DNA of 59,615 bases, filler included, from Bipalium vagum (taxonomy: Eukaryota): the NCBI GenBank assembly GCA_037834085.1. It is 3 parts of 3 records of this genome, joined end to end, with 100 filler letters (N's around TTAATTAATTAA, not from the genome) between each part and the next. Parts side by side here need not be neighbours in the genome. Positions count along the whole stretch, not along the records: positions 38,075 to 59,615 come from JBBMKC010235921.1; 2 more parts are not named here. One strand, 5' to 3'. The translations under genes were made by a program, and so were the position numbers. Below, in pieces: positions 2,938 to 58,713 of this stretch (its first letter is position 1; each line of letters opens with the position of its first letter). The notes below the pieces were generated by a model, which worked only from the letters and a program-made list of their open reading frames with translations, was not told the origin of the DNA and searched no databases.

Positions 2938-3260
2938 ATCAGTTTTACACTAAGTCGGATTTGGATTTTTCCTAAAAAAAATTGTCAAAAGAGCGGAAAA
3001 TATGGTAATCAAGGGGGACTTCGTCTGATGAGTATTGAGGATGATTAAGAAGTTCCCATTCATACAGTTTTGCCACAGTCATTTGTGCAGTGTGCGGTCT
3101 GGCGTTATCATGCAATAAGATAGATTTAAACATTAATCTGATTGTTAATCTAATTGTTTTTTTTAAAGCTTTTGCATATTGTGGTCCAGTTGATTACAGA
3201 GTATTTATGCTGTGATTGATAACCTAGTTTTATAAAGTCATAATTAATCACACCTATGTT
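2938..3260 (-). mobile_element. Mariner transposase C-terminal fragment (pseudogene)
   Basis: Minus-strand translation LLHDNARPHTAQMTV...ELLNHPQYSSDEVPLDYHIF, matching the mariner HDNA.PH and HPPYSPDL.P.D motifs. Confidence 0.85.
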
Positions 3261-3544
3261 AGAACTTGACCGTGTTACTGCTTGACTCAACAGAAGTTTT
3301 TTTGTTGAATATCACAATTCTTTTAAAAATGAATCTTTGTGACAAGAAAACAACATCAAAAAAGTAAACTCTTTTATTTATTTTTCATGAAGTTCATCTT
3401 TCTTATTTGAACTAAAAGATTTAACATTCTTTACTGGCATCAAACTTTAACAAAAATAGCCACTGAGACATATTAGTCTCAACGATGATCTTTATTTGTC
3501 ATTACTGAGTTTTAATACTGAGATATCGCGTGAATAATCTGGTC

Positions 3545-3715
3545 ATCGAGATCCCAATTACCTGTACGAAATGCGGTGAAATAATTTGATATTGTTTACT
3601 GTGTAGTAACACTGTAGCCAAATACACTATTAATGTGTCGGGCAGTCTGCGATGCCGTTTTGCCACGTGAAAACTCATACTTCATAATGATACGACTTTT
3701 TGATATATCCATTTA
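3545..3715 (-). mobile_element. Mariner transposase N-terminal HTH fragment
   Basis: Frameshifted YEFSRG..ASQTARHINSVFG...TISNYFTAFRTGN, typical of a mariner N-terminus. Confidence 0.7.
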
Positions 3716-4239
3716 GTGATTTCGAACAACTGCATGTTACAAAATACTTTCATCTCTGTCAGTCAATTCTGATCTATTCTTGGATTACTTGGTATCAACA
3801 ATGTTCATCATTTCTGGTTTCTGATGGTTTTAGCACTTTATAATAAATGTTACATTCTTGATAAGACTTTGGACCGATGTACATTCTGTTTCGAAGATAT
3901 AACGAGTTTACCAGGCTTCAGTCTAAATATTTTACGTTTTCTTGTCTGTCTAAAGAAGGCCATAATAAATGTTGTTTGGCTGAAATACAATTGCAAATTT
4001 AGAATTTATATACAAATGTATTTGTGAAATTTATTAGGTCCCGGAATGCTGAGCGTCGTTTTTGGACTCGACTTTTATTTAGTCTTTTATTACAATCAAT
4101 TATAAATTTTCTTTAAATAATTTAAATTGATGTTTAAAGATTATTATGTTGTTCATTGATTTAAATAATAATATTAATGATACATTTATTTTTTTTATTA
4201 ATTTTAAGTGAAAAATATCAAAATTTTAATAGTTCTAAT

Positions 4240-4375
4240 ATCAAAATCATGACGTGTTTCTTTTACGATTTCAAAGTAGGTCTGAAGGCCACTGAATCAG
4301 CCAAGCGAATTAATAAAGAAATTGGCAAGGGTACCATCTGTATTCGAGATGCCCATCTATGGTTCAAGCCATTGC
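4240..4375 (+). mobile_element. Mariner transposase N-terminal HTH fragment
   Basis: FFYDFKVGLKATESAKRINKEIGKGTICIRDAHLWFK within ORF 4177..4416. Confidence 0.75.
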
Positions 4376-4830
4376 GAACAAGTTCAAAGTTAAGCAACCC
4401 TTCAAAATTCCAATAAATAGTTATCATCACTTTCATTCTGAACCGATTCTGCCTTGAAACTGATAGAGGAGCCTGAGTTCTTGAAATCCATTTCATCTGT
4501 CAGTTGTGAAAAATATAAATCCATTTTTCATCAAATCTGACGATGCTTCGCTAAAATCCGTCGTCCATAGAGTTTTGGAATAATTGCCGATAAAATTCAA
4601 AGCTACGATTAGCTTGTGATTCTGTCAGCTCATGTGGGTCTAAATGGGGCTTCTTATGAACATAATCAAGTTGGTTCAAGTATTTCAAGACTGTTCTGTA
4701 AATAACAGAATAGACTGATCCCAAACTCAACTGCTTGATGATTCATCTTCGAGAGTGTCAATCAAGTCCTAATTGTCCAACTATGATAGTAGTCCAGAAC
4801 AGGATGATCTTCCAAGTTGACGTTACATCA
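4376..4830 (-). mobile_element. Mariner transposase central fragment
   Basis: PHELTESQANR...IVRFDEKWI and KVMITIYWNFEG (WVPHEL, DEKW and KVMLCVWWD motifs) on the minus strand. Confidence 0.8.
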
Positions 4831-8831: not shown

Positions 8832-9849
8832 ATGGGATCATTTCGACTGAAATGCTGACTGTAGGGTCAAGTCTGGCGACGGTTTTTTCAACCCTTTATC
8901 AAAGACTGTCAGTGTCTTTAAACGTTGGACGACATAAATCTTTCTCTACATATTTTTAAATATTTATCTACCTAACATGTGTTCTAGTGTGTCTATGTTA
9001 CTTTCTAAATATGAAGGTTTTTTACAATAGTAAATGTTTTGGGACGGATCCACTACAAATAAATCATACGAAAATTTTATGGATCCCACGGAACAAGAAA
9101 ATATATGAAGCGAAAGACAAAATTATAATTAAGACCAGCGAACGGAACTATCTTTTAAAGAATTGTAAAATATCCAGAAAAGGTATTGTTACCAAAGTGG
9201 ACCCTAAGTAAATTAAGCAATAGATCAAAGTCAGTATGATTGAAAGATCATGGATAAAATATTACACAATATAGAATACATATTATACAAAAAATGTCTA
9301 TTATTTTCATTAACAAGCAGTGATAAAGGAAAGTATTCCAATATAAAGCGTATAAAGTATAAAAAGGTTTCAATGACTACTTTTTAAGAGAAGGTTAAGG
9401 TTTACAAAAGGTTAAGTGTTGGAATTGGATTATATACTCTTGAGTTTCTTTGAAAAAATCTGCATTGAAATTCTGACAGCGGATGTCTGAGATCAACTTT
9501 GGAGTAATTGACTAAATATTATGATATATCAAATGATGAAAATATGTAAGTTTTATAATAAAGTATGAGAAACAAACCAGCCTGAAAATAACAGGTTGAG
9601 ATCATAAAAGGATCAGACATAGATATTCGAAACCAGTGAAAAGCTTCTCATGCTTTATGAAGGGATGGACCGAAAATCATACGAATTACAGCGTTTTAAT
9701 AAACAATTTACACAAATATTTTCCCCTCTTAAGAACGAAGATATTTCCTAAAATGTACTTATGAAAGTTCGTAGTATCAGGTAACCAAGGAAGTTCCTGT
9801 GAGGTTTTGTAAGACAGCATTAAAAATCAATTAGCCAAATCCCCTGCAA

Positions 9850-10335
9850 GAATTTATTATGCCAAGAATTAAAGAAGACTTTGGAAATAAAGATTTTTAT
9901 TTTCAGCACGATAGTGCACCTGCACATTACAATCGTAAAGTGAGGGAATACCTTGCCAATAACCTGTCAAATAGGGGAATTGGAAAAAGAGATTCAAAGG
10001 AATTTCCTCATCGATATAATGCCAATGGATTTTTTCTTCTGGAGTTATATGAAGGATAAATATTTCAGTATAAACATCAGCTATCATTAATGACCTAAAG
10101 CTTCCTTACACGAAGAATGTGTCAAAATTCCAAAAGAAGTGATTATCAACCACTTCGCGATATAAACAATTTGAGAACATGCATTAACAAATTATTGTAT
10201 ATTGACGTTATAGACTGTATCTGATAAGCTGATATTTGATAGCTTATTAAAATTAAAATATATATAATTATCTTGACAAAGTTAATGTATGTTATTTACT
10301 TTTAAAAACCATTCACATTTTTGAGACGCTATTTA
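9850..10335 (+). mobile_element. Tc1/maT-type transposase C-terminal fragment
   Basis: FYFQHDSAPAHY..VREYL...IGKR followed by MDFFFWSYMKDK (the WPPRSPDL..DFFLWG family). Confidence 0.8.
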
Positions 10336-10504
10336 TATATACTAATATAATAATATATATAGTTAAGTATTATAATATACTAGTTATTATAAGTTATTAT
10401 TAATAACAATATATATAAATAATATAATAAAAAAGACTAATATTTATATTATTATGATACAGATATGATATAGATATTGATTGTAATATAATAAACTTCA
10501 AATT

Positions 10505-11001
10505 ATTTGCATTTCCTGAAATTAATAGCGATTACTACTCCGGACTTGTGCAAAACACTAGAAAGCTCAGAAGGAAAACCAGACTCTCAGAACTGTATTT
10601 TTTGCATGACAATGCACCTGTGCACACAAGTAATCTTGCAACGTCAACAATTGCTAAATGCGGATTTTAAGTTCTCCGACATCCACCCTACAGCCCAGAT
10701 TTGACCCCATCAGACTTCTACCTCTTCAACTATCTTAAAAAGAACTTGGAGGTCAACAATTTGCTTCCAAGGCAGAACTGAGAGATTCAGTGATGCAGTT
10801 TTTAGAGAATAAATCACCAGAGTTCTTTAAATCGGCTTTCATTGAGTTGGCTGCTTGCTGGCGGAAATGTGTCAATGTACATGGTAACTATACAGAAAAA
10901 TAATTAAACCTCTGTAATGTGCTTGTTATGTTAAATAAAAATTATAATATTCGTGCATCTCTTTCAATGCTAGTATCACTACTTATTGGTCGCACCAAGT
11001 A
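10505..11001 (+). mobile_element. Mariner 3' half with right TIR
   Basis: FLHDNAPVH...HPPYSPDLTPSDFYLF...WRKCVNVHGNYTEK* (stop 10901-10903), then cactacttattggtcgcaccaagTA. 3' end is similar to the element at 31078-31856. Confidence 0.9.
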
Positions 11002-14000: not shown

Positions 14001-15197
14001 CATTGTCAGAAAAATAATTTCAAATAATATTGAGGGGTTTCAGGCTTGAGTTTTCATGACAGCTGTCTAAATTGAACAATACTATCAAAAGATTATTTAA
14101 TGAAAAAATCAATTCAGAGATTTTTTAAAGTACTCTGAAATTGAATTATATTTTAAGAATATATTTCGTATTTATTTTTATACATAACAATTTTAATATA
14201 TTAATTTAATAATAATAATAATTAATTATTAATCATAAATAAAATAAATTTAACTAATATAACAGTAAAAAATAATTATATTACAAGAATATATTATTTA
14301 TATTTATGCCTATATTATTTTATTTTAGTATGTCTATAATCTTGATTAAATAAAAAAATAAATTTGAAAAAATGAAGAAAATAGTTTAATAAATAATAAT
14401 ATTATATTAATAAATAATTTAAATAATCAGTTAATAGAAACATGGAAGGAATTAAAATTCAAAGAGCATTTTGCCAGACTGACGAAAAAAGAAAAAAACG
14501 AAAAATAAATAAAATAAAAATCAGTCGAATCTTTCAATCGAATGAAAGAAAAATTCATAAAGAAAATTGACCGATTAAAACAGTCTGGGAAATTATTTGG
14601 CTGCTTTTGTGAGGATTATCTTTAGCGTCTGAGATTGATAGAGAAAAAAAATAACAGAAAAAGTTAATTCTTATTGAAACATATATATTAAAGAAAAAAT
14701 AAATGAATAAATATTTTTAAATTTTCAAATAATTGATACCACTGACTTACATACGAGTGAGGTTTTTGTAATATAATATAATAATGTTGAATGAGACTAT
14801 GTGAATCTATGAACCCAGTATTATTAATAGAAATACAAACAAATAAGCATAAAATGAACACAAATATCTTCCAAATTAATGTAATTACATATTGGATAAA
14901 ACATAGTATATTTAAAGAAACGTATATTCTCTGACACAGATAAAGATAATATTTAATATTTGCTAGTAAAACGGATATTCTAAATCTATAAGCAACAGTT
15001 TAATTTCATCCTTCAAAACCTAACCGACCTATTTGCCAACCAAATATTTTGTAATAAAAGTTCGATCTATTGCAGTCAGTTCGTTTCTCATTTATTTTCC
15101 ATTTAATGTGTACCAACATTAGAGATTTGGTTATGGAATCTTTCAGTCATTTCTTATCTACATATTTCTACTCTCATTCCAAACATAATTTTATATA

Positions 15198-17664: not shown

Positions 17665-17959
17665 NNNNNNNNNNNNNNNNNNNNNNNNNNNNNNNNNNNN
17701 NNNNNNNNTTAATTAATTAANNNNNNNNNNNNNNNNNNNNNNNNNNNNNNNNNNNNNNNNNNNNTATATAGACCTATAAAGCACATGTATATCATTTTCG
17801 GTCACCGAAGGTCCCTCTATTGTTAATAATTATTTAAAATACGGGTAAAATTTATGGTTATGTTAAAAATAAAATTTTAGGCTATAAATTTAAAATACGG
17901 TTAAAATTTTTAATATTAATAACAAAGCAAAATATATGATTCTATCTAAAAGATCTATA

Positions 17960-18882: not shown

Positions 18883-19834
18883 TGTTGGGTTAGCCAAGAA
18901 CACATTTCTGTAAACCCCTTTAAAAGCATGTTAGAGACCACAATAGGGTCTAGATTATTTATCATTATTATAAATTAATTATCAAGACCGCAAAAGGGTC
19001 AGAATTAAAACACTACTACTACTACTAATACTACTACTACTACTACTAATAATAATAATAATAAAATAAAAATAAATAAATTATTAATTAATTAATTCAA
19101 AAGTACATTAAAACAAAAAGGGGCAATTAATTATTATTTTTAAGGGATCTACTCTTGACAATGGCGAACCTTAATTGCCAAGATTAGATCAGGGTCCGCA
19201 AGGAAGGACCGATTTAAAATTATCGATATAAAAAGGGAATCGACATTCCTCATTAATCAAACTGATCTACGACTGATTAGTCGTCTGATCAGAATGGTAT
19301 ATAAGGAGTTGGAAGTCGCAGTGGATTGCTACAAAATTCTACGAGACGTCGGAAGAAGCAGAACTCTAAGAGACGTTGGAAGCCTTTAACAGTAACCATT
19401 CTTTATGCCCTCTCTGCGACAGGAGCTCATGACGGGTCCTGTGCTGTTAAGAGGTTTCTGAGCGGACCGGATTGGGCTCAGCTAATCACCTTTTGGACCT
19501 GTCGTCACAAGTGGTGAGAATATCTTGATTTTGTTTTTTTCTTTTTAAATTAATTGATATTTAATCCTTGCTGACATTTAATTGATATTGGTATTTGATT
19601 ATTTAATTTTAATTTAATTGATTATTATTCTTGACGTTGGTTTTCAGTGTGATTGATTGGAGACATTTTATTGATTGTTTGGAAACCTTTTTTATTGTTA
19701 TTTTAGGAATAAAGTGTTGTTCGTAGTTGTTTGATTCATTCATTTGCGTACACGTATTGACAAAAGTGAAGGGGTCAGTAAACTTTGCGAGCTAAGTGTT
19801 AAGACAGTATTCATAGTAAAATAATAGCGTAACA
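18883..19834 (+). mobile_element. Probable solo LTR (gypsy-like)
   Basis: TGTTGGGTTA...TAGCGTAACA imperfect terminal inverted ends, TATA-like tatataag near 19298, GC-rich core, T-rich tail, AATAAA near 19708. No clear TSD. Confidence 0.45.
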
Positions 19835-22945: not shown

Positions 22946-23164
22946 ATGTCTCAGTTATGCTTTATGACCGGATGCGATCAGGAAATAGCAATGATGCAGT
23001 TGCTAAATTCGGACTACGATCTTCAACTTGCTGCGGATAAAATTCTGGAAACTATGCCAAATAATAAACAGGTTGACAATGGTTGGCAAACCATTAACAG
23101 ACAAAAGAAATCGAAGAAGAAAGAGGTTAAAAAAGAGGATAACAACAACGATGAACATGTTAAA
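22946..23164 (+). pseudogene. UBA-like domain exon, reminiscent of the UBAP2/UBAP2L/Lingerer N-terminus
   Basis: QLCFMTGCDQEIAMMQLLNSDYDLQLAADKIL followed by GWQTINRQKKSKKK; downstream sequence has stops and frameshifts. Confidence 0.4.
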
Positions 23165-24523: not shown

Positions 24524-26425
24524 TGTTACGATCGAGAATCAGACACATTTAGAGAAGAACACCCAAATGCGAACGCTCCACACGAAGTTGAGTTGATCGG
24601 AGCAATAAACTAGATGAAGTCAACTATCGCGATATTTATATTTATAATATAAGTAATTTATTCAATATTATAGAAGAGGAAGCGGAAAAAAAGATATACA
24701 AAACTAATGATGCAATGGAGAAAGTGTACAGATTTATAAAAATGGAGGGATTGAATATTGATGCAGGCAGAACGAGTAGCGCAAAGCAAGGAAACGAGAT
24801 ACTGCTAATAGAAGAAAGAGGTCAACAGATCAGGTATGATAAGATGAAAGGCAGACCAAGTGTAACAGTTCAGATTCAAGGATACCAATTCGAATGTTTA
24901 TTAGATACAGGACCCAGTATCAACATGATGAGCTGGAAGATTTTCGAAAGATTAAATGACGTTGAATTAAGAGATAGCGAAGACAATCTGAAATGTGCTA
25001 ACAATAGCCCACTTGAAACGATGAGTGTAATAAAAGTGGACATATGCATATGGAACACACGACAGAAGATCAGATTTATAGTAGTAAAAGACATACAGTC
25101 AGGATTGATTGGTGGGATTGAATTACAAAGACAGCTCGGGTTTGCTCTTGAAAGAAAGGCGACAAAAGACAGATATAATGAACAATTACGCAACATAGAG
25201 GCGAAATTTGGTAGGAAAACAAACGATTAAGAAAGATTATAGAGAGCACTAATAATTCTAGTTACGACACCAAACAAAATTTTGGAACGAATTATAAACA
25301 AATATAAAAGAGTATTCATGGCAGATAATTGGGATATCGGTAAAACAAAAATGGCAGAGCATAAAATGATCACCAAAGGAGGACCAATAAACGTTAAACC
25401 TTGGAGACAGCCCATCCATTTGGAGAAGATTGACGAAGCAATAAAAAATTATTCGACAACGACATCATCAGAAAGTACAACTCACCATAGAATTCACCGC
25501 TGATATGCGTATGGAAGAAGGAAAGACGTAAGATTATGTTTAGATTTCAGGAAAAATAATACCATAACGGAGAGTGTAATACCATGTGTGAGAGATGCTA
25601 GACAACTTATACGGAACTGAATACATGAGTACCATTGATCTCGGAAATGCCTATTATCAAGTGCCACTACATCCAGACTCTCAGTAGAAAACAGCATTCT
25701 CCACAAAAAATGGACAATTTTGTTTTAAGAGAATGCCCTTTGGTATAGCAGCTGCGCCAGGGACCTTGCAGGAACTGATGAAAAATGTTTTAAGAGGCTT
25801 AAAAGGAACTATTGTTTACATGGACGATATATTGATATTCTCAAAGGATGAGGAACAACATTACGAAATACTGAGCGCGGTCTTGGAGAAAGTGCAGAAC
25901 GCTGGATTACGAATAAATCCAGAAAAATGTCACTTGTTACGATCGGAAGTGAAATTTCTGGGGCATATCATAGATAAGAGAGGAATCAGAACTAACTATT
26001 ATTACAGGAGATTCATCCTCAATTATTCGAAGAAGGCCAGAGCCTAAGATGCACTGTATGGAAGTACGAGCGCAAAACTGATATGGACAAAAGCATGTAG
26101 CAGAGCTTTCGAAGAAATGAAAGAAGCATTGACAAAAGCCCCAATAGTAGGTTTTCCTAGTACATCCAGTATTTTTATACTTGATACAGACCCAAGTTTT
26201 GACGCGATAGGAGCAGTTCTGTCTCAGAGAGATGAAAGGAATCAAGAGAGGGTTATTGCATACGGATCGCATGCATTATCGGCTCATGAAAAAGGATATT
26301 GCATAACAAGAAAAGAACTACTGGCTATATACTACTTTTGCGAACATTTCAAACATTATCTGTATGGCAAGAAGTTTCTGGTACGCACGGACCACAAAGC
26401 AATAACATTTATGAGAAAAACCATT
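24524..26425 (+). mobile_element. Ty3/gypsy LTR retrotransposon pol fragment (protease-RT-RNase H), frameshifted
   Basis: LLDTG protease site, MPFG and YMDDILI RT motifs, FILDTDPS..IGAVLSQ, RKELLAI and VRTDHKA RNase H motifs; TGTTAC start at 24524. Confidence 0.95.
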
Positions 26426-27019
26426 TACTCTAAAACCAAATTATTAGTAATAGTAAAACTAATCGAATAAAACTCTCTTCAAATCTTTAAACTATTTTTA
26501 AAAAAGTCAAAATTATCTTGTTGTTCATTACTACAATAACTAAGTTAATGTATATAATTCACAGGATTAATAATGAAAAAATAGTAACATAAGGAAGTCA
26601 ATTTAATTAAAATACAAACATTACACATTAGGCAAATAACTTGTATATAATGTTGTATATTTATTATGAAGCATAATTAAGGCAAAGTAAAACGTAATAT
26701 TCATTCTAATACATAGTGGGCAAATAATTTTGTCAAAAAGTGCATACGTAAAAGTCTAAAATCTGCCTTTACAAAAATTCAGCTTGCATTCTTAGAAAAA
26801 CCAACCATAATTTAATATGATATATACTGATAAATATTTTAAAATATATTATTGATTAAAATTTTTATTGATTAAATCTCTGTTTAAATACACCCTATAA
26901 AATCCCATTTTTATAAATTCACGTTCCACAAATAGTTAAATTTCGCGGGACGGAAAATGTGATATTATACAGTGTTGACTGTAATATATCATTTAAAATA
27001 TACAACCATTAAAAATATG

Positions 27020-27488: not shown

Positions 27489-27645
27489 GTGGTGAGATCA
27501 CAAAACAAGCGGAACCGAAATATAATAGCGAAAAATAACCTGGAATTGTCCAATAGTAATAACTATAACAACAGTTGCCATAATACCAATGAAAAGACGA
27601 TTGCATCTAATTCCATTGAAATGTTCGATCTACATGAAGAATTGA
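27489..27645 (+). CDS. Host gene exon B
   Basis: ttcttag acceptor, GTAAGT donor; VVRSQNKRNR...MFDLHEEL; phase 0 to 1. Confidence 0.75.
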
Positions 27646-31077: not shown

Positions 31078-31856
31078 TGTGGTGCGTCCAATAAGTAGTA
31101 AGAATCATCTAGAATGAAATAAAAAGAAAAATTGGAATTATGCATATGAATAAATATACACATTTATATTTTTTAGATTTTAGTGACAAAAATTTCAAAA
31201 TATCTTTAGAAAAACTAAAATACCCTAGTTTGATTAGGTTCTTATTTATGATGGACATGACTAGGAAGCAATTCTTTTGGACTTAGATGCTGTACATAAT
31301 GATCATTGCAGATACAAAAATTTATCGATAGTACAACAATTTTAAGGATGGTAGAGCATCGATAATTGATGAAAATAAGTCAGAAAGGCATTGTGAAATC
31401 AATTCGAAAATAAAAAAACTAGAAAAAATAGTCAAAATGAAGGAAGAATAACAACTAGAGAATTGACAAACCGTTTACATGTCAAAAAAAGCTCCGAAGA
31501 AAAAGAGATTTTCAGAACTGTATTTTTTGCATGACAATGCACAAAAGTATTTTTCAATGTCAACCATACTAACTCTGGATTGTTTCGACATCATGCAGTC
31601 TAAATTTGACCCATCTGCCTCTACTAAAACTAAACAATTTGCTTTCAGACATAACTGAGGAGCTCAGTGATGGAGTTTTTAGACAATGGATCTTCAGAGA
31701 TCTATAAATTTGTTTTCGCTGGTGGAAATATATTTATGTATATGGTAACTATATATAAAAGTAAAACCTTTGTAATTCACTTGTTATATTATATAAATAT
31801 TATAATATTTGTGCATCTCTTTCTATATGAGTTTCACTACTTATGGGCGCATCACA
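31078..31856 (+). mobile_element. Internally deleted mariner, same family as 10505-11001
   Basis: tgtggtgcgtccaataagtagt ... actacttatgggcgcatcaca TIRs; FLHDNA motif. Confidence 0.85.
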
Positions 31857-32054
31857 TATTGATAAGTATAACTCGTTTTACGTTCTCCTTTAATTTGAAT
31901 ATATAAAATTCAATATTAATAAATAATTTCTTACATCTGAAAGAGGTTCTTGGCAAATTTCTATAATGTGTATTCAATGTACGAGTATTTGATTGAGAAA
32001 ATTTTAATCTGTAGGTTTCAGAAAATCTTAGTTATTTTTTATCAGTCAGTTCTA

Positions 32055-34298: not shown

Positions 34299-36845
34299 GT
34301 AAAGATTTTTAATTTCTTTATATATTATCGATTTTATATTTTAAAAATTTTTATTGTTGATTTATTATTTTTGAAATAATTTTTTTTATTAAAATATTTT
34401 GCACTCAAATTTTTTAAATATTGATTTTTATATACGATTTAAGAATGTTATTTTGTTTTATTACTAATTTTGTTTTATTTTTTGATATTTTCTGCAACTC
34501 TAAATGTAAAAATATGTGAGTTTAAAATACGAAAATGGTCAATATTTTTCAGTTATATTATCCCTCAATTGTGATTTTCTATTTCGTATTTTTCATGACC
34601 ACTGAAGAAAAAAATCTTGAAATTGTAAATTATTTTTTATATTTAAATCGAAGATGGAAATCACGTCATTTAAAACTTTTTTGTGACCTGGTTCAATGGA
34701 AAATATTTTGCGATACTTTATTTTGTTGAGTCACGAAATATTGATAATTCTTCTCCAGATTTTGACGAAATGCAACAGTTGAAAACAACACTTGTAAATT
34801 ATTATTTGCGAAATTCTGTCAGTTTTTGTCTCTGTAGCTCTTGCTGTTAAGCAATCAGTTTTTCTTATTTTGTGAAAATAGTGTACAAACAACGTTCGAT
34901 GTCTTTTATTGTTTTTTTTGTTGAATCACATAATTAAAAATTTGAACTTTTACAAAGATATCAGTTTTCTTTGATAAGATCTTGATAGAAAATCAGTCAA
35001 GGATTTATTTTTCATTATCTTATGTCGTTTTATAAAAGTTATCTTGATATTTTAAAACTTTCTCATTTTTTGAAAAAAATTATTAAATGTTTCTTCGTTG
35101 ATCAAGGATGTTTTCAAAAATGTATTCAAAATTGTTCTTATTTTTTTCGAGAATCGATACTTAGGTGCAATAAGAATATAAAAGTTATCAAAAATTCTGA
35201 ATTGAATTATAAAGGAAAATTTAAAATGCCTTTAATATTATTTTTCATTATCATAATAAAAAATCATAATAATTGAAGTGAATCTATTGTAAATTTTTCA
35301 ATGAAAATCATTGTATTTAGTAGCATTGTGTTTCAAATACGAACTAACAATGTTATAAATAATTGAGTTTTTATCAATACTATTCTAATGAAATTTTGTT
35401 TTGTATAATTTTGCTATTTTACCGTTTAAAAATTTGAAGATTTATTGTCATTTATTAAGATCTCGATTTATTACTTTTAATGTTAAGTTAAATTCGATAA
35501 TTGTTATCTCAGTGAGTCGTAATCACCAGTAATTATTATAATTATCAGCTTATTGTGAATTTTGTGTACTTTTAGTAATTCGATATGATTAAAGTTCATT
35601 TAATACATATTGAAGTTATCCTGACTTTGAAATCAATAATAATGAATTCTTCAATAAATAATAATTGATTGAAAGTTTATGATTCAGTTGATGACTACAT
35701 GAAAACTATCTTTTCAAACCAATCGTATCTGAAGTTAAGGTTATAAATATAAAAAATTTTCAAATTCTTGTACAAAAGGGTGAGATAGATTTACAAAAAT
35801 TGAAGGACAATAATAATAATAATAAATTAATGTTTCATACTACACAGTTTTCTATAATGTTGCGATGTACCATAACATTTGATGTTTTCAGCACAGATAA
35901 CGGTAAATGTCACTTTAGGTACAGTGAAAAAAATTGTTTATGATTGTAGCTTTGGTGATATCTATAATACTTGCTTTTCTAAATTAAACAAAAATTAAAT
36001 TTTTATTGTGTAGTTCAACCTTGGGTGGATCTTTTTGAAATTATATAATGCATTAAAAAATTAATAAGCCAGATTTTTTAAAAAAATATTTCTATAATTA
36101 TTTACTGCATGTTTTTCAATTAAATAATATTTAAATATGATGGAATAATTATTTATAATGTTATATGTTAAATTTAACATTCCTGAGATTTCCTTGAGTA
36201 GACCATTTTTTTTATATTTTAATGATCAACAAATTTAAATATTATTTTTCTGTATAACACACTTTTTTGTAGAGAATAATTCAGAAAATTCTAAATACTG
36301 AATATAGTTCCATTAAAAAATGGTTTTAAGTGTGTGAGGAGAAAGAAACCCGTTTGAATCAAATTTGAAATAATGTTTTAGGTGAATACGTGAAAAGAAG
36401 CTTCGTCAATTTTAATAATTTCTTAAAAGAAAGGCTCACAGTATATTTATAAGTATAAGTAAGTATTTATGAATAAGTATTAAGTAAAATTATTTTATTG
36501 TAAAAATTCAAAATTGCTGCGAGTAAAAAAATTAGAAATGATGGAAACAGAAGGATACTACAGAGTGAAAATAAAGTTCCCACATTTCCTTGAGAAACCA
36601 TTATTATATGAATAATTACCAAAACAATGCATAGCATATTACAAAATATGTTTGAATTGAGTTATTCTCCAGTTTTTACAATATCTGAGGCGTTTCTTTA
36701 AATTGGTTAGTGTATTCGTAAAGTCTGTAACAGTTATCTCATTCAAAAATATTTTACGATTTCTTGAAATTTTATTATGACATTGAATCAATTGTAATGA
36801 ATGTGACTAACTATTGATTTCTCATTTAAAAATATGATTATTTAG

Positions 36846-37422
36846 TGTGAAAGTAAACTCTGAGAACGATTCGAAGTATTCTGATCAGTCGTCGACGATA
36901 ATAATCAATACTACAACCGCTACGACATCTACAAATAATGAAACTGTGATTTCTCAATCAAATTCATCAGATTCTAAATTGATTCTTGAATGTTTAATGC
37001 ACCAGTTGCCGGTTTTTGGAAAATTCTCCAAAACTCAACAGCCTAAATCTTTACCAATAATTCCAACCAAACCTGTTTCTTTCGCTCTTCCAATAAAATT
37101 ACACAACAAATGTGGAAAATTTCGTTACAATTTCGGAGTAAACTTTTCTGAATTGTTAATTGGGACAACTGCTACGCCTTGTTCTGACAATCGTAGTTTC
37201 ACAATTCCTACTAATACCAATTGCAAACCTTCCGCAATCCCGCAAGTGGAACATCGTGATAATCTATTTAATTTGAATCAGTTTCACAATACATTAATTG
37301 GGGCCAATCATCCCAATTTCAATAATTTAGTCATACACGGACCGGTGCCGAAGCAACAACCAAATGTAAAAGAGATCCTTCATACTATTCTCAAGCAGAA
37401 GCAGGCCATTTTGCTTGCACAG
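36846..37422 (+). CDS. Host gene exon D (S/T/N/P-rich, 192 codons)
   Basis: tttag acceptor, CAG|GTTAGA donor, long open frame; phase 2 to 0. Confidence 0.85.
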
Positions 37423-37506
37423 GTTAGAATTTTCTTGCGTTATAACATTTGTATGCATATTTTGAAATTTCCGGTTATATGTTTATTGATAATACAATTA
37501 TTTTCA

Positions 37507-37548
<42 letters not shown>

Positions 37549-37573
37549 TTTAAGCTTATTTTTACATTGTCAG

Positions 37574-37700
37574 CAACAAGGTCAACCTTATTATCCATTA
37601 TCTAAATCCATCAGTCTGGTTCCGATGACTAATTCAAATCCTATGTATTCTATGCAAATGAATCCCGACAGTCATGTACTATACAAAGATATCGACAACG
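37574..37700 (+). CDS. Host gene exon E
   Basis: gtcag acceptor; QQGQPYYPLSKSISLVPMTNSNPMYSMQMNPDSHVLYKDIDN. Donor uncertain (37701, or 37676). Confidence 0.65.
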
Positions 37701-38074
37701 GTATTCAATATACACTTTTCATTGTTATAATTAACTTTTCAATTTTACAAAATTTCCACAAATCTTTTATAATAAAAATATAAATCAGTTTAGAAAATAT
37801 CTTTCATCAAAAGAACATCGGATTTTATGAAAATGTCGGTTTAAGAGAAAGCTATTTGATCTATCGATATATTAGGTTGTCTAATAAATTCGTGTCTTTT
37901 TTTTTCGATGTCGTTTTGAATGACATTAGATGCATCTATTATTAATTTAATATTTAAATAGACAGATCACGTGTNNNNNNNNNNNNNNNNNNNNNNNNNN
38001 NNNNNNNNNNNNNNNNNNTTAATTAATTAANNNNNNNNNNNNNNNNNNNNNNNNNNNNNNNNNNNNNNNNNNNN

Positions 38075-42541: not shown

Positions 42542-43702
42542 TTAAGTTTTAACAACATTTTTCATGATTTTATTATTTTATGATTTTGTTTTAAGATATT
42601 TATATTAATATCAAATACATTTGTTTGAAAGATCTTTTTCTGCTCTACAGAAGAAGAGTGAAGTTTTATGTCATTTCATTTTATTTAAATTTAACAGTTT
42701 TGAAATGCAGTACCAAGTTGATCAAAAACACCATTTCTCGCACCTATTACCATTTTATTTTAATCGAGGTTTTATAGTTACAGGAGCGGAACAAGAAATT
42801 TGTAATGTATATGGAAAACATTTTTTATTCTGGACTACTGCAAAATGTTGGTTCGAGAAATTTGAATCTTCAATTCAACCTTCAAGAAATCTCACATACT
42901 GATTGGTCATCTAATTTCTATCATGACCGTCATAGAGGACGGCTGTCAAACAGCCAGAGATTAAACAGCAATCCATTGACAGTCTTAGGCCACCAAAACT
43001 CAAAAACGTGGTAATTGTGTGAAATATCGGTAGAATAAAAAACCAAAGAAAGGGTTTTAAGAATTGAATTGATAAATTGCCAGATATCAAGCCACAATAA
43101 ACGGTTTTTGATCGAATTATCAATGGGATGAGAAATGGTGCTTTTAAACAAACTTGAAGCGCAGAAAAACGTTGTTGGAGTCCTGCTTGCACAGTAACGC
43201 TCAGAATTGAATAAGATTAGCATCCCAATAAAACCATGATCTCTGTTTTGTAGAATTGGGCGAGAAATGACCCAGAAATCAAACAGTCGACAAGAACCTG
43301 ATAATGAATCAATTGTGTCGAGTATAAATGAAAATATGACAAATGAAAGACAAGACCCAAAGTCATTCTTCTCCATGATAACACAAAACAGCATACAACA
43401 AATATCATCAAAACTACCCTCAAATCTCTCGATTCTGAGGTTCTTCAACACTTTCCATATGCTTCGACAAGACATTACTATCTTTTCCGCTCTCTGTTAA
43501 ATCATATGAAAGGAATTACTTTTGAGAAGGAAATAAACTAGTTGACCACTTTCTAGAATAAAGGTTTCGATAATCTGGTGGACAGATGGGAGATCCTAAA
43601 TAATTATATTAATGATTGATTTTCCATTATTTTTTTCAAAAAGTTTTATCTCTTATAAATATATATTATTCAAAATCACGAAAAATTATGTTAAAAACAT
43701 AA
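42542..43702 (+). mobile_element. Near full-length decayed mariner (about 1.16 kb)
   Basis: Imperfect TIRs ttaagttttaacaacatttttcatgatttt / aaaatcacgaaaaattatgttaaaaacataa; MQYQVDQKHHFSHLL..FNRG, ICNVYG..WFEKF and LVDRWE motifs. Confidence 0.85.
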
Positions 43703-49399: not shown

Positions 49400-49930
49400 A
49401 TTTTAAAAATTAGTTTTTTTTTAAAATTTCATCCATGCTTTTTAAATAATTTAAAAATTTCCCAGGTTTGAATAACCTCCTCATACCCCCGTTCTCAAAA
49501 ATTTTTTAATTTTCTGTACATTTCTCTCAAATTTCTTTCCGTTTGGCTTTTCTAACACATATCTTTGATCATGGACTTTAAGGACGATCTCATATGATTC
49601 TTCATATATGGTCTTTCATTTTCTTTTGCTCGAGCTTCGGCCTTCACTAGCACCTTTTTCCTACGGAAAATGTCCTCTTTGTATTATATTTGATTTTCGA
49701 AATCTATTTTTCAGCTGCCTTATATATTTTGTGTCTTTAGATCTTTCTACCAAACACCATTTTAGCCGGACTTATTCCGATTGTTTTCTGTAGCGTAGAA
49801 TTGAGAGGAAATTCCACTTCCTGCAGGATCTCGGCCCAGTTGCTTGTTCCTCTTTCTCTTAAAGTTGCGTTCAAAAAATAGCACACAGTTCTGAATTTTC
49901 TTTCTATTTGACCATTTGTGTTGTGCTTAT
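49400..49930 (-). mobile_element. Ty3/gypsy integrase 3' end, PPT and start of 3' LTR
   Basis: NGQIERKFRT..W..L..VEF.LNST...G.SP..MVFG integrase motif; gagaacggggg PPT-like tract at 49486-49496 followed by TG. LTR extent is uncertain. Confidence 0.8.
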
Positions 49931-49934
49931 TTTT

Positions 49935-50293
49935 CCACAACCCTCTGCATCACTGAGATCAAATTTTCCAAGACGGAATTTGTCCAACCACCAACGGGTA
50001 GTTGATTCTGCTACATAACCATCTCCTAAAGGTCTGTTTATATTTCTGGTTGCATCTGCCGCAAAATTTCCAAGTTTAAATTCGTAGATATTTAATATTG
50101 CTCTAATTTGCTGGTTTGTTAACATTTTTAAAAATGTGCCAAAATATGCTTTAATTTAAAGCAGTAAAAAGCAGTATGAATCCTAAGCATCAATTTGGAA
50201 TATCATATGATGCCATTCATACGTATTTTATATAAAATAAAATCATCGAAAGTTGCCTTGTATAAAACGCTAATTTATTTTCGAACAACCTAA
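49935..50293 (-). mobile_element. Mariner 5' end with left TIR
   Basis: TA-ttaggttgttcgaaaataaatt TIR; YEFKLG..AADATRNIN...RWWLDKFRLGKFDLSD. Confidence 0.85.
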
Positions 50294-50859: not shown

Positions 50860-51740
50860 AAATCTGTTCAAAGGATTGGAAGTGCTGTTTGGATAAGTGT
50901 GTCATCTATCAAAACAGATGATTATCTGTAGGGTCACAGTCATGTGAATAACCCGCATTGGGTATTACTTAACATCTAAGGATTGCTAACATTTCCCAAA
51001 CTGGTTTTTTAGCATGTGACTAGACATTGTCATGCGAAAAGGAGTTTATGTTGTCTTTTGTCAAACTCTGGTAGTTTTTGGCTCAATTTCCGGTTCATGC
51101 ATTACTTTCGTTTCCATTATTACAGATCACCGGTACCCGTTTGTCCATGTTGTATAATCTCGGATGAATCACATCTTTATGGTTCCACCAATCCATGACC
51201 AAGCTTTCTTTCTGTTGAAATTCCTCTTTTAAGATGTTCTAGATGTCTCGCCGGAGTTGCAAATTGTTTTTCTTCGTTTAGGGTTATGAAAATAAACCAA
51301 TGTTTCATCACTCGTTACAATTACAAGAAAATTTTTTTTCTTTTTCCAGCAATCAAAATTTCACAATTGGTTTTATATTTTTCGAGGTCTCGTATATCCA
51401 TCCTCCTTTCCTGTAGATCTTCTCTATTGTTGTTAAACGTCGGCTAAGTGATGGTCGACAAACATCTAATGATTTTGCAAGTTCAAGTTGAGTTTGACAT
51501 GAATCCTAATACACTAATGCTTTCAGATTTTCATCATCAAACCATTTCTTTTGTCCGAGAGGTTCTTTATTTTCACACTTAAATCCCCCTTCCTGAAATG
51601 TTCGAACAATCTTTTACAAGTTGGTAAAGATGAAACATTGTCTTCATAAAGCTTAATAAGTATTATGGGAGTTTCGGTAGCCGATTTTCTTAATATTGAG
51701 ATGAAGCACCATCACTTCTCACAAATGGTGTTTATTTGGT
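50860..51740 (-). mobile_element. Decayed mariner transposase
   Basis: FDDENLKALV..DSCQTQLELAKSL, HDNV.SH and YSHDCDPTDNHLF motifs. Confidence 0.8.
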
Positions 51741-52548
51741 GAAAAAGAATGTGAAAAATTATAGATATTTCTCTTTACATGAGAAAATTTTTTACTGAAT
51801 AATTTTGAATAATATTCAAACTACATAAATTCTGTTAATTCGTTTAAACAATTAAATTATTTTTACTATAGTTATTTTAAAAATAAAGTTTTTTAAAGGT
51901 AGTTTCAACGTACACACATAATATAAAAAATATATATATAAATTCTAAAAATTAGAATATTATATTATTGACTTATATTTAACTTTAATAAAATCAATAC
52001 TTAAGTAATTAAATTTTACGATTAAATTAAATCAATGAATTTTTTAAAAAAATAATGAACTGAATAATAACAAAGTTTGATAATTAAATTGGTAGAAAAT
52101 TCTGATTGATCAAAGACAAAATTATAAATCAGGGATTTCAAACTTGTTCATATTAAGTTATTATTTTATATATGGGAAATAAATCGTTATTATTTTTGTA
52201 AAGAATTCATTTAATTAACGCTAACTATTTTTAAAACTCTTTGATTACCAGTATTGATCAAATAGCTATTGGTTATATTGGGAAATTACTTAACTATAAA
52301 ATATATCTCGCGCAAAATATTTATTTATTCCCATTGCAACTATGAAATGACTTTGATCTTCTCTGTGAAGGCCCTTTTTTGCTCTTAAAAATTGACTTTG
52401 TAAATTATTTTCATCATTAATTTTTTGAGTTTTTATTTAAAAATTCTCTTGCAAAAGAATATTGATCTATATTTTTATTCATAAAACATAAAAAAATTAT
52501 TTTGACAATCTGATTTTATTTGTGGAAGATTTTGAGAATAATATCTAT

Positions 52549-53100
52549 TAGTGGTCCAATTTTATTATGCGTCCTAATCACAAAACTTTAAAAAATAAAT
52601 TTTATTATTATCATACAAACATTAAATGATTAAATATTCTCTCTCAGTGTTAACTACTCTCTGCCATCTATCTACCAAAGAATGAATGTCATTGGAATAA
52701 AATTCAGTAGTTTTTTTTATCAAAAATTGTTTAAAGTCATTTTTTATGTCGTCCAAATTTTCATAATTTTTTCCTTTAAAATTGTGACTTATCGAGTGAA
52801 ACAGATGAAAATCCGTAGCCGCGATGTCTGAGCTATATTGTGGATGTAGCAATACTTCATAACACGATTCTCTTAATTTCTTTTGTGTCATTTATGATGC
52901 ATGGAATTTATCATTATCATGCTGAAGAATAACTCCTTTGCTGCTAACCAAACTGGGTCTTTTTTTTGAAGCGCCCAATGTAAACTGTCTAATTTTTGGC
53001 AGTAACGTTCAAAGTCAATAGTATCGTGAGGCCTCTTAAGCTTTGGTGCCTTGATCATAATCATACAACAAACATAACCTGGTGTGAGTATTTGTAATAC
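52549..53100 (-). mobile_element. Mariner 3' half
   Basis: VILQHDN..., LLHPQYSSDIAATDFHLF, LVDRWQRVV..EY in ORF 52622..52891. Confidence 0.9.
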
Positions 53101-55845
53101 TTTTTGCCATTAGAGTTTCAAAAAGAAATATTAAATTATTATCTACATTTAAATGTGATGCATAAATGGTATTATTAAAAGAATTTCAAATAGATTTAAA
53201 TTGATTTTATTAAATTAAAACGTTTAAGTTTTGCAATATAAAAATCTAGGTTAAATTGGATCCATAATATATACTGTATATTGTACAAAGTTAGTTTTTA
53301 TGGATTTGCACAGGTCTTAATAGATTTGACTTTGTGAGGATAATTAGACATTTCTGATATTTTTACCAATATATCAATATTAAGAAGTTTTTTTAATTTG
53401 ATCGTATTCACCAATAATATTTAATATTTCACAATTGAATTTTGCAGATTTTTTAAATAGTGAAATAAAAGTCTATAAAGCAACTTTGATCTTTCTTTTA
53501 TTTTGAGATCTTTTTATGAAATGAGACGACGAATAAGTCAGAAAATATGAATGAGAGAAAACAATTAAAATTGTCAAATTATTAAGAAAGAAATACTTAT
53601 TTTTACGAACATTTACGGATTGGAATAAAAATTTTTAAAATTTCATTCTCCCGTGAACTTTGAAAAACCTTAACATAATACATGTAAATTTGATATTGGT
53701 TCAGAAACAATTTTTCAAAAGCGATTCAGTGAAAATTTTCTCTGATAAAAAAACCTTTGATATTTATGTGACTTAATTAGTACTGTTGATCTCCTAAGTT
53801 GATCAGAATGTAAAATTAAATTCATTGAAATATCTTGACTTTTATCTTCTAGCATACCACAAATGTTTGCCGTCACTGTCTATTTTAAATGAGACAGTCG
53901 ATTTTGATCAAATCGTCAGATTTAGGTATTGAAATTATGTTAAATCTAAGAAATTATAGAACTTTGGGAGTTCTTTTGTTGACTTTTTAAAACAAATGAA
54001 AATTATTGATTTAAGAGTTTTATTCATTAAAAGATAAATTACATTTTAAAATCTTTGTTCTATCTAAAAAGTTAATTCTTGACAAGCTGTATTTAAAAAA
54101 AACTCATTCGTTATGTACCGTAACTCGTTAAATTGAAAAGATCATGTGTAAAGGGACTGAAGTTTAAAATATGGAAAAAAAGACTTTAGTTAAATATTCT
54201 TTTTCTTTTCAACTCAAGGTCTTTCTCGAATAATAGGTGAAATAAAATTCTACCTTTGCGTATTTCTTTTATTATTCAAGCATATATTTTAGAATAAATC
54301 AATAATAGGTAGGGTTTTGAAATGTCAGTACATAGGCACAACATTCTGAGACAATTTCGTGACATTGCAGTCAGATTTTTGAAACGTAGGAGGACAAAAG
54401 AAATAAATTCTTGGGTATTTGAAACTATTTTTCTTTTATTAATTATTGATTGTTTGAATAGTATTAATTGCATTATAAAATCAACATTAGTGTTGTCGAC
54501 CCATAATTAATATTCGATTTTTTCGCCTTTTATGGTGTTAATTTCCTAACTTCAACAAAACCTATCTCTATTTATCTTTGTATTGTTAATCAATTAAAAA
54601 GAAAAGAATAAATAAACCCAATATTCAATTTTATGTGAAAATTAATTGATTTGTTTTTTATACTACTTTGATTGACAGAAAAATTGACTTTAATTATTAA
54701 TAAATAATAATAAATTTTTTTTAAAAGTCAATAAAGATGAAATTTCTGTTTACATTATGAAATCCACTGAAATAGGGAATAAATAATTTAGTATAAATTG
54801 GATTGAACTGTCGAATATTAAAATATCAACTATTTACATTTAATGTAAGTATGCTTCTCGAAATATAGTTTTATCATTTTAATTTCTCTGAAAGAAAATT
54901 TAATATTTTCACAATTTTAAATAGTTTCGAATTTAAGCAAAATAAATAAGCATTTTATTGTTAGGTAATCAGTATCATTATTTTTACAGCATTCTATATT
55001 CCTCTAGCCAGATTATTAAGATCATCATTTTAATATAACCAAACAAATGATTGTAGTGATTTTGTGAATTTCTGGATGAATTCAGTTGTCATAAATATAG
55101 GAATTAATGAAAAACATTAATTATTTGAATCAGGAATGTATTACATAAGTTTTTAAGATTGTGGAAACAGCAGTTTCAAGTTTCCGGATCAGAGATTTGT
55201 CAATCATTATTTTCGTGACAAAAAATATCACGCCATTTAAAAGCATCTGAAAATGAAGTGAAACTGAATTGTAGCAATAATAATTAATTATTATATATAT
55301 TTATGCTTTTTATAAATAAATAAAACAAATTTAACTTCTAATTCATAACTGTTAAAACCCCTTTATTCCTGCGATCCTCATGATATCTATTTTCCATTTC
55401 TAGAATTTTAGCTTCGTGTGAGATGTCATGTATATTTAATAAGATTTTTGGTGCATCGGAACTTTTAAAAGTATTTGTCCATTATCTATACTCCTTTCTT
55501 TCTGACATTTCTGAACGAGAATTACACTAAAAAAGTCAAAGAAATTCTAAATCAGAACAAAAATATACCTTTTGTTTCATTACACTTGAAAACAATGAAA
55601 TACTTGTTCCAAATATCACTATATTATGCATTAATTAAGATATTTAATTTTAAATGTTTTCTCAAGGTTTTGTGGCAAAGTATATTTAAATTATTTATTT
55701 TTAAAATATTTGTTAACTTTGTACTGTTACGCTTGTTTAAAATTTAATGCTATTTTATCAAATGTGAGTGTTAATTACTTTAAATGAGTTACTGATTTTT
55801 AATTTTACTTTAGATTTTGCAGAATTTTTATCATTTTATTTTTAG

Positions 55846-55906: not shown

Positions 55907-56916
55907 ACAACTGCTCAATGTATAAAATAATAGTATTTTTATTTTAATACACCAGAAATCCATTATTTATAATGTATTGTGATTAATTGTGATATATTTA
56001 TACATATAAGTAATATTTAATAATTTTTTCAAATTCTCAGAAAAAATTATATTTTAAAATAATACTTATGAAAAATTTTGTTTTCAATAAAGATTGTATT
56101 ATAATAATTATGATATTCATTAAATTATAAAAATATGTAGAGTTCTCGGGTCATATTTGTATTTTCAGCTTGTTTTATATTTTATTCAATTAGATTATGT
56201 CATTTTTTGAAAAATGCATTTGTAGTCATTTGATAATTGTAAGATAACTTTAGCTTATTAATAAAAATATACTTATGAAATGATCATTTACCGCAGCTTG
56301 ATATATAAATATCATTTTTAAATAAAATAATTCACAATTTTGCTTTAAATTAAAAATGTTATTTCAATTCTTTCAGCAACATGTTTTATAATTTGTTTTT
56401 AGACGATTTTTAGACAAAAAATGTATTTATTGTTTAAAGATCACTAAAATAAGCAATAGCCATTGATATTTTAAGGTCTACATTTTATTTTTAAAAAATA
56501 AGAAATTATGCCGGCTTGTGTATTTTTAGACTTAAAATGTTTTCAGTAGTTGATATATCATGAAAATATAAGTTTGTCAAAATATTGACAGTGTAATACA
56601 AAATTATGTTGACACAATTAGCTATATTTTTAACAAGAATTAAAATTTTGCGAAAACAAAAGGTTAATAACAGCAACAAAGGACTTTAATCAACAATATT
56701 CAAAAAGCCTGTAAACGCTTTTGAAAATTCTTAACAATCCCCTATTGATATTTTGTTCCATTCTGTCAATAAGGATTCTTCGGTGAAGTTAAACTTTTTT
56801 GGTTGTCTCTTGTCTCTAAAATACACCAAACACTGGAATCCACAAGGTTAAGATCCAGGGACTATGGAGGCTCTTCAGTTGAAGAGATAAAATTCTTCTT
56901 GTAGGACTGCTATATT

Positions 56917-57186
56917 GACCTGGTGTGGTCGCCATGTTAGTTGAAAATTAATCGGAGATACCGGGACTCGAACCCGGGAACTTCACATGCGCATAAACTG
57001 CTATGACTGCTAAGCTACATCCCCCGACTAATTTTCAATTTATTTCACACCCCCCTCCTTTAAAGCTCACAACCATATCCTTAACCGCCCGAGTCTCTTA
57101 ATTCCATTTCCTTTCGTTTTACTTTTCCTTTACACTTTTGAGACCTCATCCGCTGGTTGGTGTCCTGGTGTGGTCACGATGTTAGT
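56917..57186 (-). mobile_element. tRNA-containing TRIM (Helenus/Cassandra-type non-autonomous LTR retrotransposon)
   Basis: Minus strand: ACTAACA + PBS (57162-57179) + internal + PPT AAAGGAGGGGGG (57050-57061) + 115-bp TGT...ACA LTR (56935-57049) + PBS TGGCGACCACACCAGG (56919-56934). Confidence 0.85.
56954..57024 (-). pseudogene. tRNA-Ala(CGC)-like sequence inside the LTR
   Basis: GGGGATG/TATCTCC acceptor with G3:U70, A-box-like TAGCTTAGCAG, B box GGTTCGAGTCC, perfect T-stem; anticodon arm degenerate. Confidence 0.8.
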
Positions 57187-58598
57187 GGTTGCTAAAAAAT
57201 CATTACATTCCATAAAAATTTATTAATTCAAACCGTTTTCTGTTTTGTTCAATTTTCTATTAATACAAAGGAAATTTTAATACTTTTAACATATAAAATT
57301 TTCGCATTTAATTCGAATATATTGAGCTTTAAAATTTATACTTGTTTTTATTAAAAATGTAATTTATACTTTATTTAATTTTAAATTATTAAAATCTATT
57401 AGCTCAATGTACTGCAAATTAAATATGTTACTCAGATATTTTTAAATTCTCACATTGAGGATCAATTAATTTTTTAACTTCAGGTTCCTATAACCTTTTT
57501 CTTTTGTTTATATTTCACACGCTAAGTATGATGGTGAAATAAATTGTTTTCTTTATCAAGGACCTTTGAGCGTAAGAGCCAGAGAATTTTTCTTTAAAAA
57601 ATTCCCCAATAATTTTGAAAATATCCATCACGGACGATACTCACGGTTTTGTAAAAATAATATCATTTTATTCAAAATATACTTTGTAAACTTAAATCTT
57701 TATCTCAGTGATTTTAAATAAAAGCAACTTTCATCGTTAAGTTCTAAATGCATCACTCCACATATTTTACAAAATTTTTAGGAACTTAACAATATTAAAT
57801 ATGTTATATCGAACAAATAAAGAATGTAAGAATACGATTACTCTTTTTTATATAAAGATATTTTTAAAATGATGTGATGTATTTCATTAATGTCAACGTA
57901 ATTTTCTGTAACCCTGTATTACTTTATAAGAAATTTTCTAAGTTTTTCTATTTCATTTTTATAAATAAAAAAATATTTATGATCAATAATATTTTATAAA
58001 AATTTAATCGATAATGAAAATTAGATAATTTTTAACAAATCAAATTCATTTTAATTTGAAATTCGTATTGATATCTAAAATTTGAATTATTGGCTTTCAT
58101 AATAATTTTTTCTAAGGCAGAAGGAAATGAATTTACTAAAATCCCTTTTCGTGAAACTTTAGTTAAGCCGCTTATGTGCAAAGTAAATTTTATTTTTATT
58201 ATATTACTAATATTATTTTACCTTTTACTCTTATTTTCACAAACTCTACAGATTAAAAGAAAGAAAATTGATACTTTAACCAATAATGAAAACTGGAAAA
58301 AGTAAATTAATAATTCTGGAGTTACAAAAATTAATGAGTAAAATGATCAAAAAATATTTTCAGACAAAGAAATAAAAATAATGAATTCTTGATTTATCTT
58401 TTGACTTAAGTGATAAGGAACTTTGAATATGAAAACCAGCTCATGATTACATATGCGAAAAAAACATCTACTAATTGTAAAACATTTTTTGAAGAAATTT
58501 AACTTATCTGAAGTTGGTAAAAATAGTCAAAATTAGATAGACGTAAAATCGAAAGTTTTAATGAAAGCAAGGTTTTGAAATATGCGTTATATCATCAT

Positions 58599-58713
58599 TG
58601 TGAGATCAATTGAAAATTAGTCAGGGGATGTATCACAGCGATCAGAGCAGTGCATACGCATGTGAAGGTCTCGGGTTCGAATCCCGGTATCTCCGATTAA
58701 TTTTCAACTAACA
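58599..58713 (+). mobile_element. Solo LTR of the tRNA-containing TRIM
   Basis: 115 bp, TGT...ACA, aligns without gaps to 56935-57049 with about 15 mismatches by hand count; tRNA-Ala-like core 58624-58694 with B box GGTTCGAATCC. Confidence 0.85.

Follow-up and report, generated by a model that had tools for sequence, protein, structure and literature searches.

The window, the whole stretch of 59,615 nucleotides of Bipalium vagum DNA (GCA_037834085.1) analysed here, has about 24% GC and is rich in mariner-type and Gypsy-type remnants. At 56919-57454 it carries an insert of 536 nt, which on the minus strand reads LTR2-PBS-interior-PPT-LTR1-PBS(16 nt). We name LTR1 the 115-nt tRNA-bearing LTR, present at the locus as LTR A and nearby as a solo copy, LTR B, and LTR2 the 275-nt repeat at the other end. 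All positions are those of the window, and the features lie on its minus strand unless stated otherwise.

LTR2 is an AT-rich, high-copy repeat at 57180-57454, whose last 7 nt (57186-57180) are identical to the LTR1 end and stand directly before the PBS. This inner PBS (PBS1, 57162-57179) has 18 nt, with two changes from most family contigs. The non-coding, purine-rich interior at 57062-57161, across which family contigs align, leads to the PPT, a 12-nt purine tract at 57050-57061 abutting LTR1 (56935-57049, TG...CA). A distal PBS tail (PBS2, 56919-56934) follows LTR1 directly. LTR B, at 58599-58713 on the plus strand and thus opposite to LTR A, is 87% identical to it over exactly 115 nt. The same 4 nt are found at 56915-56918, beside the tail, and at 57455-57458, beside LTR2, and flank the whole insert.

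The order of PBS, internal region, PPT, LTR and second PBS described in an earlier note on this DNA is real, as both PBSs, the interior of 130 nt, the PPT and the 115-nt LTR were all located and the duplication goes beyond shuffles. The 26-nt repeat has 23 matches versus at most 19 in 40/40 shuffles, and the 16-nt PBS pattern has 2 matches across the window versus 0.03 expected. The 130 nt from PBS to PPT contain 47 A versus 22 T and no T4 run, a weak signal in that 12% of the window's 130-mers and 62% of GC-matched sequences also lack it. The whole unit folds no more strongly than shuffles (z 0.12), and no ORF of at least 120 aa is present in the TRIM, its sole frame being a 64-aa one in antisense.

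Contigs were taken from the public run X1, which may come from the same sample and is the only run listed as containing the stretch, with no RNA run among the listed ones. They were placed at 80% likeness (n=3292 on 561 nt). The left junction of the insert and the one at 57454/57455 are each spanned by one X1 contig without differences. Pattern matches in other contig sets were taken as chance: the single metagenome-contig match of the 20-nt LTR-end/PBS pattern lies inside a phage terminase gene, and the three viral-contig matches of the 18-nt PBS pattern are GC-rich and have no LTR ends.

Around the insert, the left flank (56760-56918) is a low-copy repeat with a depth of about 110. Its translation resembles by eye what we take to be a Tc1/mariner transposase C-terminal motif, and it gave no match in Pfam, PDB or pairwise comparison. 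In the low-depth right flank, 57490-57549 is hairpin-bearing with a depth of 65,000-154,000 and makes a separate abundant repeat. Broken mariner-type remnants lie at 2975-4742, 9835-10989, 31467-31903, 42778-43538, 49907-50155 and 51526-53109, three pieces being clear in Pfam (Mos1 HTH or Transposase_1) and one weak. Termini at 15196, 15722, 26899, 32430 and 57918 resemble maT-type mariner ends; those at 15196 and 15722 face each other and bound an element of about 530 nt.

A broken Gypsy-type element at 24592-26467 (plus strand) retains protease, RT and RNase H pieces by Pfam, and its nearest relatives are polyproteins of about 1000-1100 aa with identity up to 74%. The family PBS, LTR1 and LTR2 are all absent beside it. 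Another LTR element may have left its leader at 19100-19600 (plus strand), which is GC-richer and non-coding-looking, with a PBS-like start at 19161 after CA. The exon-like frame at 22946-23164 (plus strand) has a weak UBA-like domain, the atlas clusters being UBA-like only and below 0.9; we presume a likeness to UBAP2/Lingerer N-termini. The frames at 27489, 34090 and 36838-37780 are likewise exon-like and may be parts of one host gene with it. Paired 44-N runs at 17665-17764 and 37975-38074, which lie in inverted arrangement beside AAT microsatellites, are filler at the joins and not genome.

The LTR1 family and its primer

The core of LTR1 (56953-57024) is a decayed tRNA-Ala-like sequence with an A box at 57017-57007 and a B box at 56974-56964. 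It matches Rfam RF00005 (tRNA) with 38.4 bits and an E value of 0.00015, has no valid anticodon by ARAGORN and was likened by eye to the S. mediterranea tRNA-Ala rows in the supplement of PMC7962491. LTR1 folds as a long hairpin instead of a cloverleaf, with z of -3.8 and -3.3 in its two window copies. LTR A has both boxes and LTR B the B box only. The arms of a 15-nt inverted repeat, at 57024-57038 and 56941-56955, extend the tRNA acceptor stem, and the sole T4 run of the unit lies inside the right arm at 56947-56944, where it could be a Pol III stop. Speculatively, in a Pol III transcript this inverted repeat (56941-57038) would lengthen the acceptor stem of the 3′ LTR alone and may shield it from tRNA-processing nucleases.

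The repeat unit has 245 nt, as a contig joint going back by this length indicates. Summed contig depth, which is not equal to copy number, exceeds 100,000 over most of LTR1 versus 22 at the unique flank. Among the loose ends listed, 180 and 140 of the 3292 contigs exit into unrelated flanks at the two ends of LTR1 and 36 exit from the distal PBS into the normal interior. Similarly, in the rows listed, 36 of 1025 contigs continue past the inner PBS into a complete LTR1. From these continuations and the 245-nt joint, we infer that the family also has ordinary elements, LTR-interior-LTR, about 360 nt long. The locus copy departs from the contig majority at 17 or more of 245 positions, and it is probably dead, with a decay of about 7%.

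At less than 1000 bp and without coding capacity, the family lies within the range of TRIMs. It also has the hallmarks of Helenus. Its LTR contains an A/B-box tRNA-derived region that is itself not a functional tRNA, and its PBS pairs with a tRNA (Arg) other than the LTR's own (Ala-like). At the family level, like LTRs enclose the PBS and PPT, while the locus copy itself has unlike ones. A 4-bp flanking repeat is found at one of the two LTR1 loci of the window and no TSD was found around solo LTR B. Judged by its sequence, the LTR1 family is a Helenus-type TRIM, since its 115-nt LTR bears an apparent decayed tRNA-Ala-like Pol III promoter. We also considered that LTR B and the 7-nt end were linked by an inversion, and dropped this, with 87% identity and no TSD.

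The family PBS agrees with the 3′ end of S. mediterranea tRNA-Arg(ACG)_1 at 17 of 18 nt when compared by eye, though the host tRNA may differ (PMC7962491). The inner PBS, its two changes aside, likewise fits except at position 11, where both PBS copies of the window share one letter that differs from the S. mediterranea prediction. No majority change at this position is seen among the contig rows listed. If the host tRNA equals that of Schmidtea, the family letter at position 11 makes the distal tail element-derived, against the earlier proposal that it was copied from the primer tRNA. The host tRNA-Arg(ACG) may well match the family there, however, as the other 17 positions fit perfectly.

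A contrast between a canonical distal and a degenerate internal PBS, which the earlier note had brought forward, is no evidence for how the copy arose. In the contigs, the inner PBS is mostly canonical: the canonical letter accounts for 13,937/15,832 of the contig depth at 57176 (88%) and 15,368/15,869 at 57178 (97%). At about 7% divergence, the computed probability of two changes in 18 nt is 0.36. The contrast carries no weight because, besides the canonical contigs, a divergence of at least 17/245 leads one to expect PBS1 to differ at two positions and PBS2 at one. The degenerate inner PBS is most likely a product of later decay.

The 275-nt repeat and the flanking four bases

On the minus strand, LTR2 opens at 57454 with the 7 nt that also open LTR B and, in most contigs, LTR1 (88,649/90,117 of the depth at 57044), a motif with a frequency of 3.6e-4 per nt. 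Between the 7-nt ends, LTR1 and LTR2 have no similarity. LTR2 is 18.5% GC and contains TATA-like and AATAAA motifs. Past 57186 the contig depth is about 2,800-34,000 until the bin 57430-57459 (20,466), and the next bin, 57460-57489, has 397, so that the depth falls about 50-fold across 57459/57460. The alignment of one paralogous contig stops at 57454 and that of another paralogous host contig begins at 57455.

The junction of LTR2, PBS and interior occurs at another locus, as a single-copy-depth contig bridges all three with 17 differences and 7 gap letters over 57094-57260 (about 86% identical). The 275-nt repeat thus appears to be the LTR of a second family, although in the window and contigs it is not seen paired, behind a PPT or beside coding sequence. 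It is therefore doubtful that the upstream LTR is missing except for its last 7 nt, as had been proposed, because those 7 nt are the end of a repeat that also starts with the 7 nt of the family LTR.

Alternatively, the 275-nt repeat belongs to a DNA transposon, as a piece whose end abuts the 5′ LTR or has deleted it. What remains would be a TRIM array after trimming, and the terminal matches would all be chance. The letters adjoining 57187 loosely resemble what we take for Tc1/mariner termini, and the 36 contigs mentioned above do run from 57186 into a normal LTR1. But three coincidences are then needed: that the 7-nt start falls on a depth boundary, that the last 7 nt match as well, and that 4 bp recur at the flanks. 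No partner inverted terminus is found within the window. We regard this alternative as quite improbable.

The distal PBS is exact for 16 nt, differs at position 17 and matches again at 18 and 19, and its positions 17-20 are the 4-mer that recurs at the far flank. The similarity to the internal region does stop within the PBS, as reported earlier, but the exact match ends at 16 nt rather than about 18. Random pairs of 4-mers match in 1.0% of cases, or in about 2-3% allowing 2-3 possible junction positions. The 4-bp repeat is a candidate TSD, and animal Helenus make TSDs of this length (PMC10886601). An empty site was not seen, the joined flanks having no partner within the window.

This repeat makes the earlier report of no visible TSD doubtful. 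Together with the LTR-like TG start at 57454, it also speaks against the proposal that an incomplete cDNA was captured without integrase. An adapted version of that proposal is that an incomplete Helenus cDNA, from a 7-nt LTR stub to the PBS tail, was patched, again without integrase and by way of the shared 7 nt, into a break where a pre-existing solo LTR2 ended. The 4-bp repeat would be an old TSD of that LTR2. It has a precedent in yeast, where 40 of 56 3′ LTR insertions at breaks carried cDNA-only nucleotides (PMC11372161), and it keeps the 4-bp repeat without an integrase using an end that lacks CA.

However, the break must have fallen exactly between the LTR end and the TSD, and the second LTR2-PBS-interior copy indicates that the junction did not arise in a single repair here. 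Nor does the degenerate inner PBS lend this version any support. Hence, capture of this kind is unlikely, while the broader idea of an aberrant reverse-transcription product stands, with its PBS tail, as the best single reading.

Routes to unlike LTRs and a PBS tail

Normal reverse transcription yields two identical LTRs. Where the LTRs differ and the U3 start is intact, the plus strand must have jumped between molecules, or two DNAs must have recombined. Our leading reading, to which we give slightly less than even chances, is that plus-strand DNA of a partner element switched, at the PBS they have in common, to the minus strand of the TRIM. The tail that the TRIM itself had copied from the tRNA would have been left in place, and the hybrid would have entered the genome through integrase. 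More specifically, the locus may be a germline fossil of an event in which a Pol III-driven Helenus RNA and a helper RNA were copied in one particle with the strands swapped at the 18-nt PBS, LTR2 being the LTR of a flatworm Helenus helper. This version is possible, yet we hold it with clear reserve. There, LTR2 and LTR1 would share only 7 nt per end and the primer.

The steps would be as follows. The A and B boxes of the tRNA-like core would drive Pol III transcription of the LTR1 elements, and a Gypsy-type helper that uses tRNA-Arg(ACG) as its primer would package their RNA. LTR2 would belong to that helper or to a sister TRIM that has the primer and the integrase ends in common with it. In a particle with both RNAs, the partner plus-strand strong-stop DNA (LTR2 and PBS) would anneal to the PBS that ends the TRIM minus strand, in an intermolecular second-strand transfer. 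The TRIM's own strong-stop DNA would never move, so its tRNA-copied tail would be kept after LTR1. Integrase would then attach both ends to the target, the left one normal and the right one carrying the tail, and make the 4-bp duplication. Unlike LTRs and the PBS tail would thus both follow from one event, since the partner took the PBS and the TRIM strong-stop DNA stayed.

Several observations favour the hybrid. The 4-bp repeat starts at the very base at which the PBS match breaks down, LTR2, PBS and interior are joined in a second copy too, and the window has a decayed Gypsy-type PR-RT-RNase H element. In the literature, Helenus LTR-1_PTrit shares its interior, not its LTR, with the autonomous Copia-9_PGr (PMC10886601), and an intermolecular second-strand transfer giving discordant LTRs has been proposed for HIV-1 (PMC5651808). 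How the dependence of TRIMs on an autonomous partner is maintained is not known, and LTR homology is unnecessary for it (Kojima 2024, PMC10886601).

Other observations count against it. The TSD is a single 4-mer, LTR B has none and LTR2 is never seen paired. Integrases normally need a terminal CA, which the right end lacks. The tail has 16 nt, neither the 18 nt of primer tRNA that HIV copies (PMC5651808) nor the 12 nt that Ty3 copies and does not inherit (PMC5371799); the 18-nt stop invoked earlier is thus the rule for HIV but not for Ty3. Moreover, Ty3 plus-strand transfer uses R-U5 homology, which is lacking between unlike LTRs (PMC5371799). At position 11 the tail agrees with the family, which favours an element-derived tail if the host tRNA is that of S. 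mediterranea.

The next reading is a tandem or nested chimera, LTR2-interior-LTR1-PBS-rest, made by template switching or unequal recombination at the PBS or interior and shortened by a deletion past PBS position 16. Its tail would be element DNA with the family letter at position 11, and the 4-mer would be chance or an old TSD reached exactly by the deletion. Such arrays are well known, with 97 tandem TRIM copies spread over 38 of the 115 families in sugar beet (PMC13570524), the Cassandra arrays (PMC7215508) and the Helenus LTR-11_DR arrays (PMC10886601). The window is full of truncated transposon remnants and the LTR2-PBS-interior junction is present in another copy. So abundant a family could supply the PBS-to-PBS geometry by two random breaks, which in the 245-nt unit are computed to give it once per about 1100-2500 truncated copies.

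The chimera requires, however, a deletion that stops precisely at a 4-mer identical to that of the far flank, and the junction does not preserve the 3-nt microhomology available between PBS positions 17-19 and the LTR end. A tandem array would have at least three like LTRs alternating with interiors, and the locus has one LTR1 and one unlike LTR. No interior-LTR-interior contig appears among the 8 of 3390 pieces and the 15 of 52 joints listed. The chimera is a serious possibility, though not one we would expect, and it ranks close behind the hybrid.

If the hybrid reading is true, the partner LTR at one end is physical evidence of co-packaging that points to the helper. The shared cis-signals then narrow to the 7-nt ends, the PBS and the PPT, and the integrase would seem to accept an end without CA. 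Should the copy instead be a chimera that was trimmed, it adds another decayed member to a known class and is still informative on the interior and primer of the LTR1 family.

Comparison with known systems

What is new is the family's interior with its Arg(ACG) primer, together with a candidate partner LTR and a putative PBS-tailed hybrid within a candidate TSD, as one decayed copy. Among the matches listed from open papers, we met no flatworm Helenus and no TRIM combining unlike LTRs with a PBS tail.

The closest system is Helenus (TRIMp3; Kojima 2024, PMC10886601), which is likewise a short non-coding TRIM with an A/B-box region in a TG...CA LTR, a tRNA PBS, a PPT and solo LTRs. Its published range of 311-1263 nt includes the present family (LTR 115, interior 130, 360 nt inferred), and its animal families have a 4-bp repeat as the locus does. 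Unlike in Helenus as described in the accessible part of that paper, the family here has a full 18-nt PBS and a 15-nt inverted repeat that encloses the tRNA core. Fig. S2 of the same source, as available, has no tRNA-Arg(ACG) primer, the one that the family PBS fits. Its Table 1 likewise has no flatworm, and the locus copy differs further by its two unlike LTRs and PBS tail. None of five family motifs was found in the accessible supplement, where line breaks could hide a match.

The HIV-1 intermolecular second-strand transfer (PMC5651808) resembles our proposal in that strong-stop DNA anneals at the minus-strand PBS of the other RNA, giving discordant LTRs. That transfer is between strains of one virus and leaves normal ends. 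Here it would be between non-homologous LTR families with the tail retained.

The tandem and chimeric TRIMs of Cassandra (PMC7215508) and sugar beet (PMC13570524) also have an LTR followed by a second PBS, and donation of LTRs by another family is reported from sugar beet. Those arrays run into a further interior, whereas here the second unit ends after 16 nt at the candidate TSD. The Ty1 cDNAs captured at double-strand breaks (PMC11372161) share the 3′ LTR with extra cDNA-only nucleotides. They are end-joining products, while the locus has an intact LTR-like TG start and a 4-bp flanking repeat.

Among flatworms, ta-TRIM of taeniid cestodes (PMC4558846) differs from the present family by its tRNA-Leu primer and 198-nt LTR, and a tRNA-like core is not mentioned in the accessible text. 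It is nevertheless a flatworm TRIM, and its candidate helper, lennie, shares with it the LTR-terminal bases, the primer tRNA and the 4-bp TSD.
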